Origin: Methanomassiliicoccus sp.
Lineage (GTDB): Archaea > Thermoplasmatota > Thermoplasmata > Methanomassiliicoccales > UBA472
NCBI GenBank assembly: GCA_004525545.1
Contig: SPCU01000002.1
Location: 1 to 46,481 of the forward strand
Direction: 5' to 3'
DNA: 46,481 nt
Part shown: positions 22,561 through 33,098 of the stretch, in pieces
Layout: every line of letters starts with the position of its first letter
Position numbering within the stretch: the first letter of the stretch is position 1
Position numbers and translations under genes: made by a program
The notes under the pieces: model-generated
What the model was told of the DNA's origin: nothing
Database searches by the model: none
What the model saw: only the letters and a program-made list of their open reading frames with translations

Positions 22561-23199
22561 ATGCAAGGACAGGAAATTCTGGCAGCATTGGAGAACGCGG
22601 TTATCACTGGTAACAAGGCTGACTCTATTAAATTCGCCAAGGAGGCATTGGAAAACGGAGTTAAGGCCTTGGACGCCATCGATAATGGATTGGTCAAGGG
22701 TATGACCATCGTCGGTGACAAGTACGCCAAGCACGAATTCTTCTTACCCCAGGTACTACTGGCCGCGGCGTCATTGTACGGCGGGTTGGACATTTTGCTA
22801 CCCCATATTCCAACGGACGGAACCGCCAAAAGGGTGGTGGGAGTCATTGGGGTCGTCGAGGGTGACGTGCACGACATCGGTAAAAACATCGTGAAGACCA
22901 TGTTGACCGCGGCCGGACTAGACATGCACGATTACGGCAAGGATGTGCCCGTCGAGAACTTCGTCAATTCGGTGAAGAAGGATGGGGCTTTCATACTGGC
23001 GATGAGCACCTTGATGACGCCGACCATGGACGGTATGAAGTCGGTCGTCGACGGATTGATCGAGAACGGGGACCGCACGACGGTGAAGATCATAATCGGT
23101 GGCGCACCAACGTCCCAGCCGTTCGCGGACGACATCGGGGCGGACATGCACGCCATCAATGCCCAGGAAGCGGTCAAGAAAGTAAAGGAGGTGTTGTGA
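22561..23199 (+). CDS. methyltransferase cognate corrinoid (B12-binding) protein, MtaC/MtbC/MtsB-like
   Basis: N-terminal helical cap. B12 motif GDVHDIGKN (DxHxxG), MSTLMT (SxL) and IIIGGAP (GG). Confidence 0.9.
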   Translation: MQGQEILAALENAVITGNKADSIKFAKEALENGVKALDAIDNGLVKGMTIVGDKYAKHEFFLPQVLLAAASLYGGLDILLPHIPTDGTAKRVVGVIGVVEGDVHDIGKNIVKTMLTAAGLDMHDYGKDVPVENFVNSVKKDGAFILAMSTLMTPTMDGMKSVVDGLIENGDRTTVKIIIGGAPTSQPFADDIGADMHAINAQEAVKKVKEVL

Positions 23200-23200
23200 A

Positions 23201-24298
23201 ATGACTGAGAAGATGACTCATATAGAGCGGGTCTTGGCATCCTTGGGCGACCAGCCGGTTGACAGGCTGACGGTATACCCCATCGCATGCGGCGTCTCCC
23301 GCCGGACGATCGGGGACGGGACAATGCTGTACAAGGACTGGTGCTCGGACCCCAAGAACTACGCACAGGGGTTAATATCCGGGCAGAAGTACTTCGACCT
23401 GGACTTAACCGTCGGCCTGATGGACCTGTCGGTCATAGCCGGGGACTTTGGGTCCCATGTGCGCATGGACGAGCAGAACACACCGTTCGTGGACGATCCA
23501 GTGATCAAAGGGCCGGAGGACTATGAGAAACTGCAGGCTCCGGACATAAATAAGGGTAGGTCTGGTGTTATCCTCGAAGGCACCAAGATCTTCGCCGATG
23601 CCCTGAAGAATGAGACCATCACATCGGGGTTCCTTGAGGGCCCATTATTGGCACTGACCCAGTCGGCCAGCGCAGAGAAGGTCTTCATGGACATGTACAA
23701 CAACCGCTCGGCGGTCCACAAGGCCCTGGGGACCTTCACCGAGTATTTAAGGGATATGGTCAAGGGGATGGGACAGTCCAAGCCTGCCGCGTGTATGTGG
23801 GACTATCTCTGGGCTTCCTACAGCTGCCTAGGCGACAACGAGTACGATGAGTTCGAGGGGCAGTACAAGTACGCTGGCGGCCTGAACGAGCTGGTCGGCA
23901 AGGAGGGCATGGCCTTGGCCATACACAACTGCGCCGACCTGCCCCACCTGGACACCCAGATCAAGGCGATGAAGCCCGCAGCCTATACCATGGCCTACTA
24001 CCCGCTGATACCCGGCTCGCCGTCGGCCTCCGAGGTCATCGGAAAGGGATACGCGGACAATTGCGTGGTATGCGGTAACATTGACCCCCAGGGCTACGTG
24101 CGCTGGAGCCAGGAGAAGATGCAGAAGACCACCATGAACTTGTGCCAAGAGGTCAAGACGGCCTTGTGCGCCCGCGGCCTGAAGTCTAAGTATTGCATCG
24201 CTTCCGGATGCGAGGTACCCCCGTCAGTCACTACCCGCCTTGAGAACATCAAGACAATGGTTGACACCGTCAAGCAGTACGGTCAGGTCACCTGCTGA
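23201..24298 (+). CDS. UroD-family methyltransferase, Zn-type (MtaA/MtbA/MtsA-like methylcobamide:thiol methyltransferase)
   Basis: UroD-like N-terminus (ERVLASLGDQPVDRLTVYP). Putative Zn ligands H-x-C (AIHNCAD) and a downstream Cys (IASGCEVPP), as in MT2 enzymes. Starts 1 nt after the corrinoid gene stop. Confidence 0.8.
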   Translation: MTEKMTHIERVLASLGDQPVDRLTVYPIACGVSRRTIGDGTMLYKDWCSDPKNYAQGLISGQKYFDLDLTVGLMDLSVIAGDFGSHVRMDEQNTPFVDDPVIKGPEDYEKLQAPDINKGRSGVILEGTKIFADALKNETITSGFLEGPLLALTQSASAEKVFMDMYNNRSAVHKALGTFTEYLRDMVKGMGQSKPAACMWDYLWASYSCLGDNEYDEFEGQYKYAGGLNELVGKEGMALAIHNCADLPHLDTQIKAMKPAAYTMAYYPLIPGSPSASEVIGKGYADNCVVCGNIDPQGYVRWSQEKMQKTTMNLCQEVKTALCARGLKSKYCIASGCEVPPSVTTRLENIKTMVDTVKQYGQVTC

Positions 24299-24396: not shown

Positions 24397-25068
24397 ATGA
24401 AAATTGCTCAGGTCGCAGGTTTTCTTGGAAGTGGAAAGACCACCTTCCTCATAGAATTGGCCAAGATCCTGGTGGATCGTGGCCATAGGATCGCTATCAT
24501 CGTCAATGACGTGGGGGAGATAAACGTAGATGCCAAATTCATCGAGATGTACGGACTGAAGGCCAAGGAGATATCCGGCGGATGCATTTGCTGCCAGGTA
24601 GCCGGTAACTTCGCCAATACCATCGCCATCCTTTACAACACTTTCAAACCTGACATCGTCATCGTGGAGCCATCTGGTGTTGCGATCCCTTGGGGACTGA
24701 AACGTGCCGCGGAATACTCCGAAGAGGAGATGGACGACGTCATCGTCCATGCTCCGGTCATTACCTTGGTCGACTCACTCAGGATCGAGGAGCTCATGCA
24801 GTCGGTGCGCCGCCTGGTCGAGACGCAGATACGCGAGGCGGACGTGGTATTCATCAATAAGGTGGACAGCGCCACCAAGGAGAAGATCGACCTATCGGTA
24901 CAGTTCTCTAAGGCCATCAACCCTAACGCTGAGATCATGTTCGGTTCCGGTCGCAATAACCAGGGGGTAAAGGAAGCGGCCACGTTGATAGAGACCAGGA
25001 CCTCGCCCCGCTACGACGAGTCGTATGAGAAGGAGATGCTTAAGAGGGACTACGGAGGGGGCGCCTGA
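24397..25068 (+). CDS. COG0523/CobW-family G3E GTPase, GTPase domain only
   Basis: Walker A GFLGSGKTT, metal-binding GCICC, EPSGVA, and NKVD. The ORF ends where the usual C-terminal domain would begin. Confidence 0.85.
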   Translation: MKIAQVAGFLGSGKTTFLIELAKILVDRGHRIAIIVNDVGEINVDAKFIEMYGLKAKEISGGCICCQVAGNFANTIAILYNTFKPDIVIVEPSGVAIPWGLKRAAEYSEEEMDDVIVHAPVITLVDSLRIEELMQSVRRLVETQIREADVVFINKVDSATKEKIDLSVQFSKAINPNAEIMFGSGRNNQGVKEAATLIETRTSPRYDESYEKEMLKRDYGGGA

Positions 25069-25541
25069 TGACCGAACTTGATGAAGATGACGACCTTCAT
25101 TTGGAAATGCATCGTGCGGTGGATGAGCTGGGCAAGTTCTCCCTCCACATGCGGATGGATTTCGGGAAGGGCGCACCGGCCAGCAAGGCCATCTCCTTTA
25201 TTGAGGAGCTGCTCATCCAGGTGACCGATGCCTGCCTTCACCACGGAGCGGACCTGATCGGGCACGTTAAAGCGTTCATGATGGTAGATGAGGACTCCAA
25301 TGTAGGATTCTCTATCATAAACCAGAATATGCAGGTGAACATCACCAGGCACCTGAAGGGTGACAACATAGAGAGGGCAGATGTGATCGTGCACATCATT
25401 GTCCACGGCATTTGGGACCCGGAGGTCCGCGATCTGACCATGGGCGTCCTAGATGGTCTGACCAAGGCTCGAGAGGTCACCTTTCAGGTTATCAAGGACT
25501 ATTACGAGACGGAAAAGAGCGTGGAGCACCACGGAGGTTGA
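25068..25541 (+). CDS. hypothetical protein, possibly the detached CobW C-terminal-like domain
   Basis: The ATG overlaps the GTPase stop (TGATG). 157 aa and His-rich (HHGADLIGHVKAF...VIVHIIVHG). The assignment to a CobW_C-like fold is inference only. Confidence 0.4.
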   Translation: MTELDEDDDLHLEMHRAVDELGKFSLHMRMDFGKGAPASKAISFIEELLIQVTDACLHHGADLIGHVKAFMMVDEDSNVGFSIINQNMQVNITRHLKGDNIERADVIVHIIVHGIWDPEVRDLTMGVLDGLTKAREVTFQVIKDYYETEKSVEHHGG

Positions 25542-25544
25542 CCA

Positions 25545-25856
25545 ATGGAAACCTACTATCAATACATGAAGGCGAAGGGCATCTCCCGGAACAGCGTGGA
25601 CTCCATCCGCAAGTTCAAATGCCCTAACTGTGGGTTCGAATTCTCAATAACCTACGCGCGTACCTTTGCCTGCCGCGGCTGCCCAGAGGTCATGAACTCC
25701 TGCCCCAAGGTGCGTTGTGGCAAGTGCGATCATGAGTTCTACATACGGGAAGCGCCGCATGTGAATGGAAAGATGAGGGAACGAGAGATCTCCAATCATA
25801 TCTCATCGGTGGTCAACAGCTACTATCAGGAACAGGGTTGGAAAAAGAGCCGCTGA
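25545..25856 (+). CDS. Cys-rich double zinc-ribbon protein, function unknown
   Basis: CPNC...CRGC...CPKVRCGKC. Starts 3 nt after the preceding stop. Confidence 0.55.
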   Translation: METYYQYMKAKGISRNSVDSIRKFKCPNCGFEFSITYARTFACRGCPEVMNSCPKVRCGKCDHEFYIREAPHVNGKMREREISNHISSVVNSYYQEQGWKKSR

Positions 25857-26234
25857 TCAGCGGATCGCCGCTTCCATGGCCTTGACCACGGCCTTCACTT
25901 CCTCTTCCGAGGGCTCCGGGAAATCGAAGGACGTTGTGAACTGGCAGGGCAACAATCCCCGTGCCACGTGATCGTCGATCGTAATGGAACTTCCGATCTC
26001 CAACCCGTTCTTCTCCATCATCCGGTCGCAGCAACGGTTGCGGCAGCCGTTGACCGTCACCAGTGAAGACATGTCCACCCCGCCCATCTCCAACATTATT
26101 GGACTAAGTCCTACGGTGCATACCGAGAACTGGATGACCTTGCTCATGTTGTCCTTGGCGAACGCCTCGGTCACTTTCTCCAGCAAGTACCCCCTTTCCC
26201 CGTTGGCCCCGCATACTACCACCCCTTTTCTCAT
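25857..26234 (-). CDS. DGC-domain putative zinc-binding protein (NGC variant)
   Basis: VVVCGANGERG ... VTVNGCRNRCC pattern in a ~125 aa protein, paralogous in layout to the upstream ORF. Confidence 0.6.
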   Translation of the reverse strand: MRKGVVVCGANGERGYLLEKVTEAFAKDNMSKVIQFSVCTVGLSPIMLEMGGVDMSSLVTVNGCRNRCCDRMMEKNGLEIGSSITIDDHVARGLLPCQFTTSFDFPEPSEEEVKAVVKAMEAAIR

Positions 26235-26578
26235 CCTCGCATCTCCTTCAGCGTCTGGCGGATGCGTTCTTTCGTTTCATCGATGCCTTTACGAGAGACG
26301 TTGAAATGCTTGTCGATCATGATCATGGAAGAGGGCAACACTTCAAATCGATTTAACACCAGAAGGCCGCAACCTCCCTCGCAACCGTCCACTAACAATA
26401 CCTTACGGAATTGAAGGGATCGCATCTCTTCCATAGCCTTCGGCAATTCAGCCAGGGCGGGAGCGACGGTCACCACCCTAATATTTTCTTCCTTGGTCAG
26501 CTCCCTCACCGCTGCCCTCAGCACCCTAGCCCCAGGGCTGTACCCGCTGCATATGGCCACATCAATCTGTTCGCTCAT
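26231..26578 (-). CDS. DGC-domain putative zinc-binding protein
   Basis: AICSGYSPGARV ... LLVDGCEGGCG, the eponymous DGC motif with 4 conserved Cys. Overlaps the next gene as ATGA. Confidence 0.65.
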   Translation of the reverse strand: MSEQIDVAICSGYSPGARVLRAAVRELTKEENIRVVTVAPALAELPKAMEEMRSLQFRKVLLVDGCEGGCGLLVLNRFEVLPSSMIMIDKHFNVSRKGIDETKERIRQTLKEMRG

Positions 26579-28589
26579 GCTCCACCTCGAAGTACATGCG
26601 GGGCTTGCCCACTGCTGTTACTTTCATATGGATCTCCAGAAGCAGGCCTTCACCCCATGATTTTCCGATCTGACCCATGATCCGTTCGTTCTCCACTATA
26701 ACCTCGATCTCGTCGGCCCCGGCCATTACGGACATCTGCCGTACCTTGCTCTCCCCCCAGGACCTGGCATAGTTGGTGGCCTCGGTGATCGTCTCGAACT
26801 CCCTCATCTCATCCATGGAGTGCATGGTGCAAGGTGGGTCCTCCATGACTCCCAGTCCAGGCTTGGGCTTGATCAGCACCTCTACCGATTCCATTATACT
26901 GCTGGTGATTGCTCCAACGGCGTTCCCCACGTCCGAGTTCACAGGCATGAGCAGCTCGGTATGCAATCTCTGGGCCACGGACGGGAGATAGGCGGCGATG
27001 GGCGCCCCGATGCCTATTATCTTCTTGTGCACCCTGATGTCAGCAGAGAAATCGATTCCTGGACGCTGGGTGGTCATCTTTTCGAATAGTACGTTGCAGA
27101 CATCACAATGGGCCATCTTTCCGCAGTCCTCGTAGACCAGACGGAAGATGATCTCCTTGGCTATCTTTTGGATGGCCGCCTCTTTTACCGTTGCGCAGAA
27201 CTCCTTGATGCCTACGTCACATAGTTCGGCCCGATAATCAGCGGCCAGGGTCGACGCTTCCGCATCGTATTCCACATACTCCCCGGAGGCGTGCAGGGCG
27301 TCTGTGGGGGTAAAGCCGATGCGAGTGATGATGCCCAATTCCTCAAGCTTGCGAACATTAAAACTGTAGGGGTGCACACCGGTGCCTTCGGATAACTCCA
27401 TCAAGGTCTTCGGTTCATCCTTGATGCTCTCCACCAGGAATTTCTCGTTCTGAGAGAGCTCGTATCCCTTGACCGTGCGAGAGAAGATGAAGAACTCATC
27501 GGCCTGCAGTATGTTCTCCATGGCGATGTGAGTGGCCTGGGGGGTCGGCTTGAGCCCCTTGACCTTCTTCAGGCTCTCGAGTATTCGAGGGTATTGAGTG
27601 GATGCAATGCATAGCGGCATGACCCGAAGCGCCCCCAGCAGTATGTGGCCGTTGACCACGACTACCCGGCTGTCACCACCGATACCAGATGTGGATATGT
27701 CCGCGGCCTTGACACGGGTGCGCCACCCTCCTATTATCGCCCCTTCGGGGTCCAAACGGGGTTTCCCCCCGCGCAGCACGCCAATGTCGGTGGTCGTCCC
27801 TCCGATGTCGACCACCACCGCCTCTTCCTCACCGGTCAAATTCTTCGCCCCGATCAGGCTGGCTGCCGGACCGGATAATATGGTCTCCACCGGCCGCTCC
27901 TTTCCCTGTTGTTCACCCATCAGCGATCCATCGCCTTTGACGATCATCAAAGGGGCTGATATGGAGTTCTCTTTCAGCACCTTAATGACCGATTGTATGA
28001 GGTCGGCCATTATCGGTATCAACTTGGCGTTCAGCACCGCGGTCAGGGTCCTCTCATGGAAGCCCAGCTGAGTAGACAGCTCATGACCACAGACCACCGG
28101 GATCCCCCAGTTACTGGATATCATGTTCTTTAAAGCGATCTCGTGCTCCGGATTTCGTACGCTGAAAAAGGTGGAGATCGCGATGGCGTCCACCTGGTTG
28201 GCTACCCCTTTCACGAAATCCATGGCTGCGACCAGGTCGATATCACAGTTGGCCTTCCCACGAATGGTGTGTCCTCCCTGAACCTGGACGACGTGCTCTA
28301 CAGGGATGCTTTGTTTATACTCCTCACCGGCGATTATCAGAGCCACCCGGCAACCCTTGCCCTCCACTACCGAATTCGTTGCCAATGTGGACGATAAGGA
28401 GACCAGCCGGATGTCTTTGACCGGTATCGACCCTAGGTTCTTTATCGAGCCGGAAATGCCGATGCTCAGATCGTTCCTGGTGGTCAATGCCTTGGCCTTG
28501 GCTATAACTCTGCCATCAGCAAGGTCTATCAATGCTGTGTCAGTGTACGTGCCTCCGGTATCGATTCCCAACCCTAGGTCCATTTGCAT
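26562..28589 (-). CDS. hydantoinase/oxoprolinase-like ASKHA-fold ATPase with an inserted winged-helix-like segment
   Basis: N-terminal GIDTGGTYTDTALIDL and second phosphate loop VVVDIGGTTTDIG. A central ~60 aa segment (LSQNEKFLVESIKDEPKTLMELSE...LEELGIITRIG) looks wHTH-like. No Fe-S Cys cluster is visible. Confidence 0.72.
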   Translation of the reverse strand: MQMDLGLGIDTGGTYTDTALIDLADGRVIAKAKALTTRNDLSIGISGSIKNLGSIPVKDIRLVSLSSTLATNSVVEGKGCRVALIIAGEEYKQSIPVEHVVQVQGGHTIRGKANCDIDLVAAMDFVKGVANQVDAIAISTFFSVRNPEHEIALKNMISSNWGIPVVCGHELSTQLGFHERTLTAVLNAKLIPIMADLIQSVIKVLKENSISAPLMIVKGDGSLMGEQQGKERPVETILSGPAASLIGAKNLTGEEEAVVVDIGGTTTDIGVLRGGKPRLDPEGAIIGGWRTRVKAADISTSGIGGDSRVVVVNGHILLGALRVMPLCIASTQYPRILESLKKVKGLKPTPQATHIAMENILQADEFFIFSRTVKGYELSQNEKFLVESIKDEPKTLMELSEGTGVHPYSFNVRKLEELGIITRIGFTPTDALHASGEYVEYDAEASTLAADYRAELCDVGIKEFCATVKEAAIQKIAKEIIFRLVYEDCGKMAHCDVCNVLFEKMTTQRPGIDFSADIRVHKKIIGIGAPIAAYLPSVAQRLHTELLMPVNSDVGNAVGAITSSIMESVEVLIKPKPGLGVMEDPPCTMHSMDEMREFETITEATNYARSWGESKVRQMSVMAGADEIEVIVENERIMGQIGKSWGEGLLLEIHMKVTAVGKPRMYFEVEHERTD

Positions 28590-28635
28590 CCCCTCCGATA
28601 ATTAAATACGATATACAATCCCAATTCCTCAATCA

Positions 28636-28643
28636 TTTATAAA
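28636..28643 (-). promoter_or_regulatory. palindromic TATA box (TTTATAAA) upstream of the hydantoinase-like operon
   Basis: Lies ~47-54 nt upstream of the ATG at 28589, in an AT-rich gap. Confidence 0.45.
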
Positions 28644-28692
28644 TCAATCGTTAATATCTACACTATATTCAGATGACTGGCACATATCCATT

Positions 28693-32104: not shown

Positions 32105-32425
32105 TTGGAGTTCGATGAATACGTGATCGACCTGAACGCAAAGTGTACCTGCGGGTGCATGGAGGGCGATCGGTTCCATAACATCTATCGGTTCCCAAAT
32201 AACTATGGGGCCTCTGTAGTGTCCAGTCCCAAGAACGATCCGAAGAGGAAGGGGGGCTATCGCATCATGTTAATTCGATTCGACTCTCCCGCTCCCGAGC
32301 ACATGTGGACATTGGACGATGATAATCCCATATCCGATTCCATCCTCGATTGCGACGATTGGGAGACTGCGTTGGCATATCTCCGGCGCCTGTTCGCCCT
32401 TCCCACACATTTGAATGACGGATGA
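32105..32425 (+). CDS. hypothetical 106-aa protein
   Basis: TTG start preceded by a GAGGGAG RBS. CTCGC motif near the N-terminus. Overlaps the DUF1638 gene start by 11 nt. No family recognised. Confidence 0.5.
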   Translation: MEFDEYVIDLNAKCTCGCMEGDRFHNIYRFPNNYGASVVSSPKNDPKRKGGYRIMLIRFDSPAPEHMWTLDDDNPISDSILDCDDWETALAYLRRLFALPTHLNDG

Positions 32426-33098
32426 TACCATGACCGAGAACGATTCAGCCAAGAAGGGGCGTTTGGCCATTATTGCCTGCGAGATCCTGAAACCTGAACT
32501 TGAGAAGCTCACAGAGGGTTGGGACGAGGTGGTCCACAGAGAATATCTAGAGTTCGCCCTGCATATCAACGCCGACGATCTGAGGGTCAAGGTCCAGGAC
32601 AAGGTCAACGCCTTGCATGGTCAGGTCGACGCCGTGTTCTTAGGATATGCGGTCTGTCAATCACTGTCCGGCATAACTGGTCTTTTGAAAGTGCCGACGG
32701 TCATGTTGGAGGGAGATGATTGTATCGCCGCCATCCTGGGGCCAGTAGAGTACGAGCACCAGAAGCGTTTGTGCGGAGGCACCTGGTTCAATACGCCTGG
32801 ATGGGCCTTGAGAGGGGTAGAGGGAGCGATCAAGGAGCTACACCTGGATATGCTCATAGACCAAGGATACGAGCCGAAGTACTTTCTAGACATGCTCTTC
32901 GAGAACTACGAGAGGTGCATATACGTCGATACGGATGTGGGCGATGCGGAGCATTACGAAGCATTATCCCGCCAGTTCGCCGAGGACCTGGGGCTGAGGC
33001 ACGAGAACCGGCCCTGCGGCACGGCCAACCTGGAAAGGTTCCTGGCTAGGACACTGCAGCTGGCAAGAAGTAATGGTCCAGCGGCGAAACTTCAATAA
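32415..33098 (+). CDS. DUF1638-family protein (family usually found beside corrinoid methyltransferase genes)
   Basis: RLAIIACEILKPELEKL ... AVFLGYAVCQSL ... DDCIAAILG pattern and a ~225 aa size. Confidence 0.7.
   Translation: MTDDTMTENDSAKKGRLAIIACEILKPELEKLTEGWDEVVHREYLEFALHINADDLRVKVQDKVNALHGQVDAVFLGYAVCQSLSGITGLLKVPTVMLEGDDCIAAILGPVEYEHQKRLCGGTWFNTPGWALRGVEGAIKELHLDMLIDQGYEPKYFLDMLFENYERCIYVDTDVGDAEHYEALSRQFAEDLGLRHENRPCGTANLERFLARTLQLARSNGPAAKLQ

Follow-up and report, generated by a model that had tools for sequence, protein, structure and literature searches.

A HyuB-less HyuA-type ATPase beside corrinoid methyltransferase genes of Methanomassiliicoccales: a candidate accessory factor of corrinoid methyltransferase systems

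Introduction

Methylotrophic methanogenesis, the acetogenic demethylation of betaines and methoxy-aromatics, and part of methionine synthesis depend on corrinoid methyltransferases, for whose maintenance RamA/RACE is the only known agent. A 46,481-nt stretch of Methanomassiliicoccus sp. DNA (GenBank assembly GCA_004525545.1, contig SPCU01000002.1, positions 1 to 46,481; hereafter the window) raises the question whether these systems have a further helper, as a unit of three genes for a hydantoinase-like ATPase and two small DGC-domain proteins lies beside a corrinoid methyltransferase operon. The window belongs to a 1.6-Mb Methanomassiliicoccales assembly that is 98% complete. In an earlier reading made from the letters of the window (the sequence-only reading), the unit had been taken for a possible alternative or split activase of the neighbouring corrinoid protein.

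The analysis described here points to another role. The ATPase is best explained, with a probability of about 0.6, as an uncharacterised ATP-dependent accessory factor of corrinoid methyltransferase systems. It would be of HyuA ancestry, would lack a HyuB subunit, and would work beside RamA with small Cys-rich partners. No paper assigning a function to this ATPase family was found in the literature.

The three-gene unit and its ATPase

The unit is composed of the following genes.

26562..28589, minus strand: HyuA-family ASKHA ATPase without HyuB partner, with a winged-helix-like segment inside an insert of ~200 aa (open reading frame, Pfam, AF2 model, Foldseek, ATP motifs)
26231..26578, minus strand: DGC1, divergent DGC-domain protein of 115 aa (Pfam DGC, alignment of 10 orthologues, hhalign)
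25857..26234, minus strand: DGC2, divergent DGC-domain protein of 125 aa (Pfam DGC below the cut-off, hhalign, alignment, AF2 model)

The open reading frames encode 675 aa (ATPase), 115 aa (DGC1) and 125 aa (DGC2). The stop of the ATPase gene and the start of DGC1 overlap by 17 nt, DGC1 and DGC2 overlap by 4 nt, and the DGC2 stop abuts the stop of the convergent zinc-ribbon gene ZnF103 (25856/25857). The tight stop-to-stop arrangement described in the sequence-only reading was thus recovered.

The ATPase was assigned to the HyuA family by Pfam, with 92.7 bits for Hydant_A_N (cut-off 25.2) and 105.8 bits for Hydantoinase_A (cut-off 22.9; profile positions 1-137 of 291 only). The hydantoinase/oxoprolinase-type assignment, made earlier from the motifs GIDTGGTYTD and DIGGTTTDIG, was borne out by these domains and by the presence of both motifs; their cores DTGGTYTD (phosphate-1) and D(I/V)GGTTTD (phosphate-2) were invariant across 36 homologues. 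A profile of these homologues matched only HyuA-type chains among solved structures. The AF2 model (pLDDT 85, pTM 0.82) was compared with known structures by Foldseek, and all of the top seven matches were HyuA-type chains (E 2e-26 to 2e-24, TM 0.58-0.62), namely those of N-methylhydantoinase, acetophenone and acetone carboxylase, and caprolactamase.

The HyuA subunits of ATP-dependent hydantoinase, 5-oxoprolinase, caprolactamase and the acetone/acetophenone carboxylases (PDB 9h03, 6yra, 5m45/5svc, 5l9w) share Pfam domains, fold and both phosphate motifs with the ATPase, and the inserted alpha/beta domain of their ASKHA core is also present. The ATPase differs from them in its incomplete Hydantoinase_A match, in its winged-helix-like insert, in a context of corrinoid methyltransferases instead of lactam or ketone catabolism, and in the missing HyuB. 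HyuB (PF02538) was detected neither in the window's genome nor in 40 of 41 relatives; the control search was positive for 6 of 14 known genomes. This absence ruled out a true hydantoinase or oxoprolinase with a HyuB partner.

Judged from motif spacing, the ATPase carries a subfamily-specific insert of about 200 residues, since the phosphate-2 motif and the GIGAP/GNAVGA region lie about 265 residues apart, against only about 63 between the phosphate-2 and adenosine motifs of the caprolactamase subunit CapA (PMC8453981). The insert includes the conserved winged-helix-like stretch …LxELxExTG…RKLEELGxIxRxGxTPTD…. A winged-helix-like insert, already proposed from the sequence, was seen in the secondary structure of the AF2 model (residues ~325-520), together with a weak MarR-like match that was not significant (E 0.35).

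Other ATPases of the superfamily were more distant. RACo (3zyy) was found at Foldseek rank 49 with an E-value of 2.7e-4, amid generic ASKHA kinases. RACo_middle, RACo_C_ter and the ferredoxin domains Fer2 and Fer4 were absent from the ATPase in the Pfam search, and the lack of an Fe-S motif noted before was thereby upheld. Two Cys residues, C327 and C587, are near-invariant and form no cluster motif. A RACo-like identity of the ATPase was ruled out by the Pfam results, the fold rank and the absence of Fe-S motifs. N-terminal residues 8-67 matched Pfam MutL (PF13941) above the cut-off (38 bits), whereas NCBIfam GlmL (NF040745) reached 33.7 bits against a cut-off of 475. The comparison with RamA/RACE and GlmL/MutL that had been suggested therefore gave only generic ASKHA likeness or likeness in the phosphate-1 region.

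Association with corrinoid methyltransferase genes

The unit converges with these genes.

22561-23199, plus strand: corrinoid protein (B12-binding and B12-binding_2 domains; TIGR02370, 198 bits)
23201-24298, plus strand: single UroD-family methyltransferase (URO-D domain; MtaA/CmuA subfamily matches)
24397..25541, plus strand: split COG0523 metallochaperone, with the GTPase domain at 24397-25068 and a detached 157-aa partner (hyp157) at 25068-25541
25545..25856, plus strand: ZnF103, Cys-rich zinc-ribbon protein (tblastn synteny, HMM context, weak zinc-ribbon Pfam matches)

The corrinoid/UroD pair resembles MtsB/MtsA, annotated in Methanomassiliicoccales as likely dimethylsulfide genes (PMC4153887). 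The ATPase orthologue stayed with the corrinoid, UroD, split COG0523 and ZnF103 genes in tblastn searches of 18 loci of relatives, at identities ranging from 96% to about 47%. Over the synteny evidence as a whole, the set of these genes with hyp157 was retained as far as 43% identity. In the window's family the ATPase unit is mostly convergent to the corrinoid operon. In other families the order corrinoid-UroD-ZnF103-ATPase was found on one strand, with 5-7 nt between ZnF103 and the ATPase gene. This one-strand set occurs in several lineages (loci L028-L030, L042, L045-L051, L056), and at L081 all eight genes, including DGC1-DGC2, lie on one strand. ZnF103, directly upstream of the ATPase gene and on the same strand in sister lineages, was the most constant small partner. 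The COG0523 and hyp157 pair is also kept with the module.

Proximity to B12-binding genes was counted in 41 Methanomassiliicoccales genomes. At least 46 of the 86 family genes (53%) have a B12-binding gene no more than 10 kb away, where random positions would give 4.8%; this enrichment of about 11-fold is a lower bound, as 150 listed B12-binding genes were used and several contigs end early.

A tree of 112 sequences was calculated with FastTree. In the well-supported clade of the window's protein, corrinoid, UroD, RACo or DUF1638 genes were found within 6 kb of 34 of the 44 Methanomassiliicoccales sequences, and the exceptions were mostly truncated contigs or genes just beyond 6 kb. The context label was clustered on the tree, with 18 changes against 36.9 in shuffles, none of 500 shuffles being as low. 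The sole HyuA with a HyuB neighbour formed a very long outside branch.

A scan with one genome per species gave at least 592 relatives of the ATPase. The best 80 of them include Sporomusa, Syntrophomonadaceae, Desulfosporosinus, other Clostridia, Anaerolineae, Methanosarcina and Methanolobus, and many of these 80 adjoin corrinoid, RACo or DUF1638 genes. Homologues of the Methanomassiliicoccales type (43% and 38% identity) were also present in bins labelled Bifidobacteriaceae bacterium (L050) and Bacteroides salyersiae (L102). The L050 contig also has a corrinoid-UroD-ZnF103-COG0523 cluster, and L102 has none of these genes within 6 kb; both contigs are probably mis-binned archaeal DNA. In published work, strain DCMF, Sporomusa and Frackibacter are shown with a 'HydA' gene in their glycine-betaine methyltransferase clusters, and the protein was strongly induced on glycine betaine (PMC9768040). 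Two predicted hydantoinases of Methanosarcina acetivorans, MA4395 and MA4396, adjoin mtaCB2 and msrDE (PMC11619418). The type 1 mlp clusters for methyl-selenide and methyl-sulfur compounds were considered and set aside as a different cluster, with two to three Mlp genes and RACE and no mention of a HyuA-like gene (PMC10418091).

The functional tie between the ATPase and the adjacent corrinoid system, supposed earlier from adjacency, was supported by the conserved synteny and the enrichment, and further by the paralogous modules and DUF1638 fusions described below. The nature of this tie can be read in more than one way. As characterised HyuA modules phosphorylate lactams, ketone enols and bicarbonate (PMC8453981), the ATPase might itself activate the methyl donor or a metabolite of the pathway, by phosphorylation or in another way. 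The UroD/corrinoid pair of the window has no separate substrate-specific MT1 gene, and transporter-like genes occur in the paralogous cluster, both in keeping with such a role. The subfamily, however, accompanies differing substrate classes: a UroD-type system here, MttB-family glycine-betaine systems elsewhere (PMC9768040), and fused corrinoid-UroD genes beside the Methanosarcina and Methanolobus homologues. This variety points to the common component, the corrinoid protein. Against substrate activation also stand the fusion or adjacency of the ATPase to DUF1638 and RACo, which are cofactor-maintenance factors (10.1101/192971), and the lack of a HyuB-like second active site for an activated intermediate. 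Substrate activation was thus judged unlikely.

A dedicated regulator would be expected to show the same conserved operon adjacency. By analogy with the ROK-family ASKHA repressors, the ATPase might sense ATP or a ligand and control transcription of the methyltransferase operon, the winged helix of its insert binding DNA. The conserved winged helix-turn-helix-like segment would fit this, as would a frameshift in MA4396 in one Methanosarcina line evolved under methanol/trimethylamine switching (10.1101/2025.05.05.652248). The ATPase gene, however, is located inside operons and is translationally coupled to structural genes, the protein is found fused to DUF1638, and the winged-helix match was not significant. 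Moreover, in a proteome 'HydA' was one of the induced cluster's most abundant proteins (PMC9768040), an unusual level for a regulator. A regulatory function of the ATPase was considered very improbable.

RamA/RACo genes and paralogous clusters

The sequence-only reading had found no RamA-like gene. This holds for the window, in which no RACo gene was detected; the genome, searched for a canonical ramA, carries four canonical RACo_C_ter genes, all on other contigs. In congeners, a paralogous cluster (L116-L118; G006:C4, G016:C6, G004:C10) repeats the whole set. Its genes are those of a corrinoid protein, an ArsR-like coiled-coil protein, a 464-aa membrane protein, the ATPase paralogue, an ArsP permease, a canonical DGC protein, two UroD proteins, a hyp157-like protein, a COG0523 protein and RACo; the COG0523 and hyp157 pair is duplicated there. 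In the window's own genome an ATPase paralogue (L034, contig C133) is flanked by a corrinoid gene on one side and UroD genes on the other. Contig C133 was recognised as the counterpart of the paralogous cluster, without the ArsP and DGC genes. RACo is located directly beside ATPase homologues at L041, L066, L073 and L097.

Tandem ATPase paralogues ahead of the DGC pair were observed at L040, L044 and L057 in some Methanomassiliicoccus. On the tree, the upstream copy falls into the clade of the paralogous module.

The presence of four RACo genes in the genome, and the clustering of RACo with the paralogue and with other homologues, indicate that the ATPase accompanies RamA and does not substitute for it. 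These results bear directly on the proposal that the ATPase and the DGC proteins form an alternative or split reductive activase in place of RamA/RACE, electrons or a metal cluster being provided in trans by the DGC proteins. The proposal draws on the lack of a RACo gene within the window, the ASKHA fold common to the ATPase and RACo, the tight coupling of the three genes, and the four conserved Cys at the C-terminal ends of the DGC2 strands as a plausible metal or cluster site. It is countered by the RACo genes just described, by the HyuA-like fold and the missing RACo domains and Fe-S motif, and by the absence of DGC from most orthologous modules. The activase proposal was consequently not upheld, and such a replacement of RamA appears quite unlikely.

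RamA/RACo/RACE (COG3894; PDB 3zyy) and the ATPase have in common the ASKHA fold, the location in corrinoid methyltransferase clusters and a presumed action on the corrinoid carrier. They are distinguished by RACo_middle, RACo_C_ter and the ferredoxin or Fe-S domain, which the ATPase lacks, and by their co-occurrence. With the reactivases GlmL/MutL, DdrA/PduG and EutA, the ATPase shares the superfamily and a B12-related context. Its match to GlmL/MutL is confined to the phosphate-1 region, its clients are methyl-transfer corrinoid proteins rather than adenosylcobalamin mutases or eliminases, and no DdrB-like small subunit is present. A role in cofactor exchange or as a chaperone, by analogy with these B12 reactivases, is plausible.

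DUF1638 and the DGC pair

DUF1638 (PF07796), a small alpha/beta protein with conserved Cys, occupies the same slot downstream of the ATPase gene in other lineages as the DGC pair does in the window. It adjoins members of the ATPase family at L042, L047, L060, L073, L100, L104 and L107. At L042 and L047 the DUF1638 gene overlaps or abuts the ATPase stop, the position of DGC1/DGC2 in the window. A search with a concatenated DUF1638 and ATPase query yielded many natural DUF1638-HyuA fusions in bacteria, of 915-967 aa and with the domains PF07796, PF05378 and PF01968. By genetic evidence, a split B12 methionine synthase needs both DUF1638 and a RamA-like protein, no role being proposed for DUF1638 (10.1101/192971); in Ruegeria, DUF1638 was co-induced with RamA on N-osmolytes (PMC12478193). 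A homology between DGC1/DGC2 and DUF1638 was considered and rejected, as the hhalign profile-profile comparison gave less than 1%; gene position alone is common to them.

The two DGC proteins had been described as DGC-type proteins with four Cys each. Their family membership stood, and the Cys count held only approximately. DGC1 scored 43.6 bits with Pfam DGC (cut-off 27). DGC2 remained just under this cut-off (26.1-26.2 bits) and is accepted as a divergent member on the strength of profile comparison by hhalign, which gave 95% for DGC1 and 92% for DGC2 against canonical DGC and 89% between the two. In an alignment of 10 orthologues DGC1 has three conserved Cys (C9, C65, C69), the second canonical Cys being lost. 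DGC2 has six, the four canonical ones plus two, and its motif reads NGC. In its AF2 model (pLDDT 86), DGC2 is small and flavodoxin-like in fold, and its strands bear four conserved Cys at their C-terminal ends. The DGC2 subfamily comprises about 171 clusters, and every one with a named source is from Methanomassiliicoccales.

Most orthologous modules are without DGC. The DGC1/DGC2 pair is therefore a lineage-specific addition and not a conserved part of the module. The two proteins are probably metal- or thiol-handling partners, and the pair is a lineage-specific variant with which partner proteins can be compared.

Foldseek matches of DGC2 were weak (E >= 0.02) and comprised low-molecular-weight protein tyrosine phosphatase (LMW-PTP)/ArsC, PTS-IIB and lumazine synthase. 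DGC2 residues 6-14 form an invariant VCGANGERG loop between strand 1 and helix 1. Its C-x2-N-x2-R pattern is a C-X5-R motif resembling the phosphate-binding loop of LMW-PTP/ArsC. An assignment of DGC2 to this type was not accepted, as sequence-profile support was absent and the structural matches were weak; the loop is a motif-level lead only.

Canonical DGC proteins of these genomes score about 100-120 bits, have four conserved Cys, and adjoin ArsP and ACR3-like genes. A family of small proteins of ~110-135 aa (…VxMNxCxK…DC.NV…) is encoded near canonical DGC, ArsP and ACR3 genes (L119, L120; own genome, contig C52). The same family was found near ATPase orthologues in two other lineages (L029, 10401-10778; L056, 13994-14404).

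This context of the canonical DGC genes, the weak fold likeness of DGC2 to LMW-PTP-type arsenate reductases with its C-X5-R-like loop, and the likeness of the COG0523 protein to the CobW-related selenoprotein family would fit a unit that detoxifies or handles metal(loid)s or thiols and only happens to lie beside the methyltransferase genes. For the COG0523 protein, the GTPase domain scored 130.7 bits with Pfam cobW, and the NCBIfam model of the selenoprotein family gave 112.6 bits, below that model's cut-off. The divergent, weakly scoring DGC1/2-type matches, however, were all located immediately downstream of an ATPase orthologue (19-20 of 41 genomes) and never with transporters. The ATPase also keeps its corrinoid context in lineages free of DGC, and none of the DGC2 Foldseek matches was significant. 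A detoxification unit was regarded as highly improbable.

Proposed function

The preferred explanation, an ATP-dependent accessory factor of corrinoid methyltransferases, would involve the following steps. A HyuA-type ATP-binding module would have lost HyuB and acquired its insert of ~200 residues. A step at the corrinoid carrier that RamA does not perform by itself might then be driven by the binding and hydrolysis of ATP, or by a HyuA-like phosphoryl transfer. Candidate steps are the opening of the B12 site for loading or exchange of the cofactor, and a shift of the cofactor to a reducible, ligand-off state. The ATPase would act with RamA/RACo and not instead of it. Its partners would be ZnF103 throughout the order, DUF1638 in many lineages, and DGC1/DGC2 in the window's family, the latter two probably serving as metal- or thiol-handling adaptors in the slot that DUF1638 occupies in sister lineages. 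The client is likely the adjacent MtsB/MtsA-like pair of corrinoid protein and Zn-type UroD methyltransferase.

The distribution of the family speaks for this explanation. Among 151 evenly sampled genomes of the phylum, the family was present in 16 of the 17 Methanomassiliicoccales and missing from the 134 others, and each of the 16 carriers has several methyltransferase-type corrinoid proteins; within the phylum the ATPase is thus confined to genomes with such proteins. Two outcomes named in advance as fatal to the sequence-only reading, occurrence mostly in genomes without corrinoid methyltransferases and a firm grouping with HyuB-partnered hydantoinases or oxoprolinases, did not arise. Several observations weigh against the explanation. 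The co-occurrence in the phylum is confounded by phylogeny, as all carriers belong to one order. A clade of 24 sequences, mainly from Chloroflexota and Proteobacteria, is mostly without B12 genes within 6 kb. At the context-less loci only 5 of 148 neighbours were B12-binding proteins; no shared alternative partner was detected among these neighbours with Pfam, and the commonest family was still B12-binding. A third paralogue of the window's genome (L035, contig C128, 5283-8362) adjoins a DUF1015 gene and a DUF362 gene with a 2x[4Fe-4S] ferredoxin insert, and has no corrinoid gene close by, so that it may serve another client or have an electron-donor partner. Because of the B12-poor clade, the context-less loci and the DUF362-linked paralogue, the corrinoid association is a trait of some clades and does not extend to the family as a whole. 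As canonical DGC genes lie beside ArsP/ACR3-type transporters, the DGC domain is in general no B12 factor. DNA runs containing the window stretch were from marine-sediment and soil metagenomes, and no RNA run containing it was found that could speak for co-transcription. We infer the mechanism of the ATPase from gene context alone.

An early activity deserves comparison. The methyltransferase activation protein (MAP) of Methanosarcina barkeri is an ATP-dependent, chromophore-free factor whose action on a corrinoid methyltransferase involves a separate reducing system. It has a reported mass of about 60 kDa, against about 73 kDa for the ATPase. It is not known to have been assigned to a gene. 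Members of the ATPase family in Methanosarcina adjoin methyltransferase genes (PMC11619418), and MAP was cited as an early archaeal phosphoprotein (PMC2652253). A link between MAP and the ATPase family is purely conjectural. In a wider formulation, the ATPase and its Cys-rich partners would be a third widespread accessory machine of corrinoid methyltransferases in archaea and bacteria, beside the carrier and RamA/RACE; the ATPase could be identical with MAP, seen as an autophosphorylating protein, in which case phosphoryl transfer would switch the cofactor to a reducible or exchangeable state, and the C-X5-R-like loop of DGC2 would handle phosphate. This formulation is tentative and was considered doubtful.

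If the preferred explanation is true, a second ATP-dependent helper would extend from gut and sediment methanogens to Firmicutes and Chloroflexota, and the in-vitro reconstitution of corrinoid systems would change. The poor activity of some recombinant corrinoid systems could be accounted for. The family would also offer a specific gene to consider for MAP activity and supply DUF1638, which is genetically important, with a partner.

Other features of the locus

Three further features were annotated.

28590..28692, minus strand: AT-rich spacer of 103 nt from cbiO to the ATPase gene, with the TATA-like TTTATAAA at 28643-28636 and the Shine-Dalgarno-like GGAGGGG at 28596-28590
25850..25863: perfect palindrome CCGCTGATCAGCGG of 14 nt, covering both convergent stops (ZnF103, DGC2)
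32415..33098, plus strand: DUF1638 protein (Pfam DUF1638, 108 bits)

The spacer at 28590-28692 is likely the unit's own promoter, a role suggested by its sequence elements. The true ATPase start is probably the second ATG at 28583, because the spacing of GGAGGGG favours this codon and the resulting 673 aa correspond to the length of the database protein. The palindrome CCGCTGATCAGCGG is followed by a T-rich tail on the minus strand and is a possible bidirectional terminator hairpin. The adjacency to cbiMNQO is kept only within the genus and was therefore not used as functional evidence.

An ORF of 106 aa overlaps the DUF1638 gene of the window by 11 nt (32105-33098) and is divergent from a fur-like gene and cbiMNQO. 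The pair of the 106-aa ORF and DUF1638 is kept in the genus, and a homologue of the 106-aa protein was found at L028 with 44% identity.

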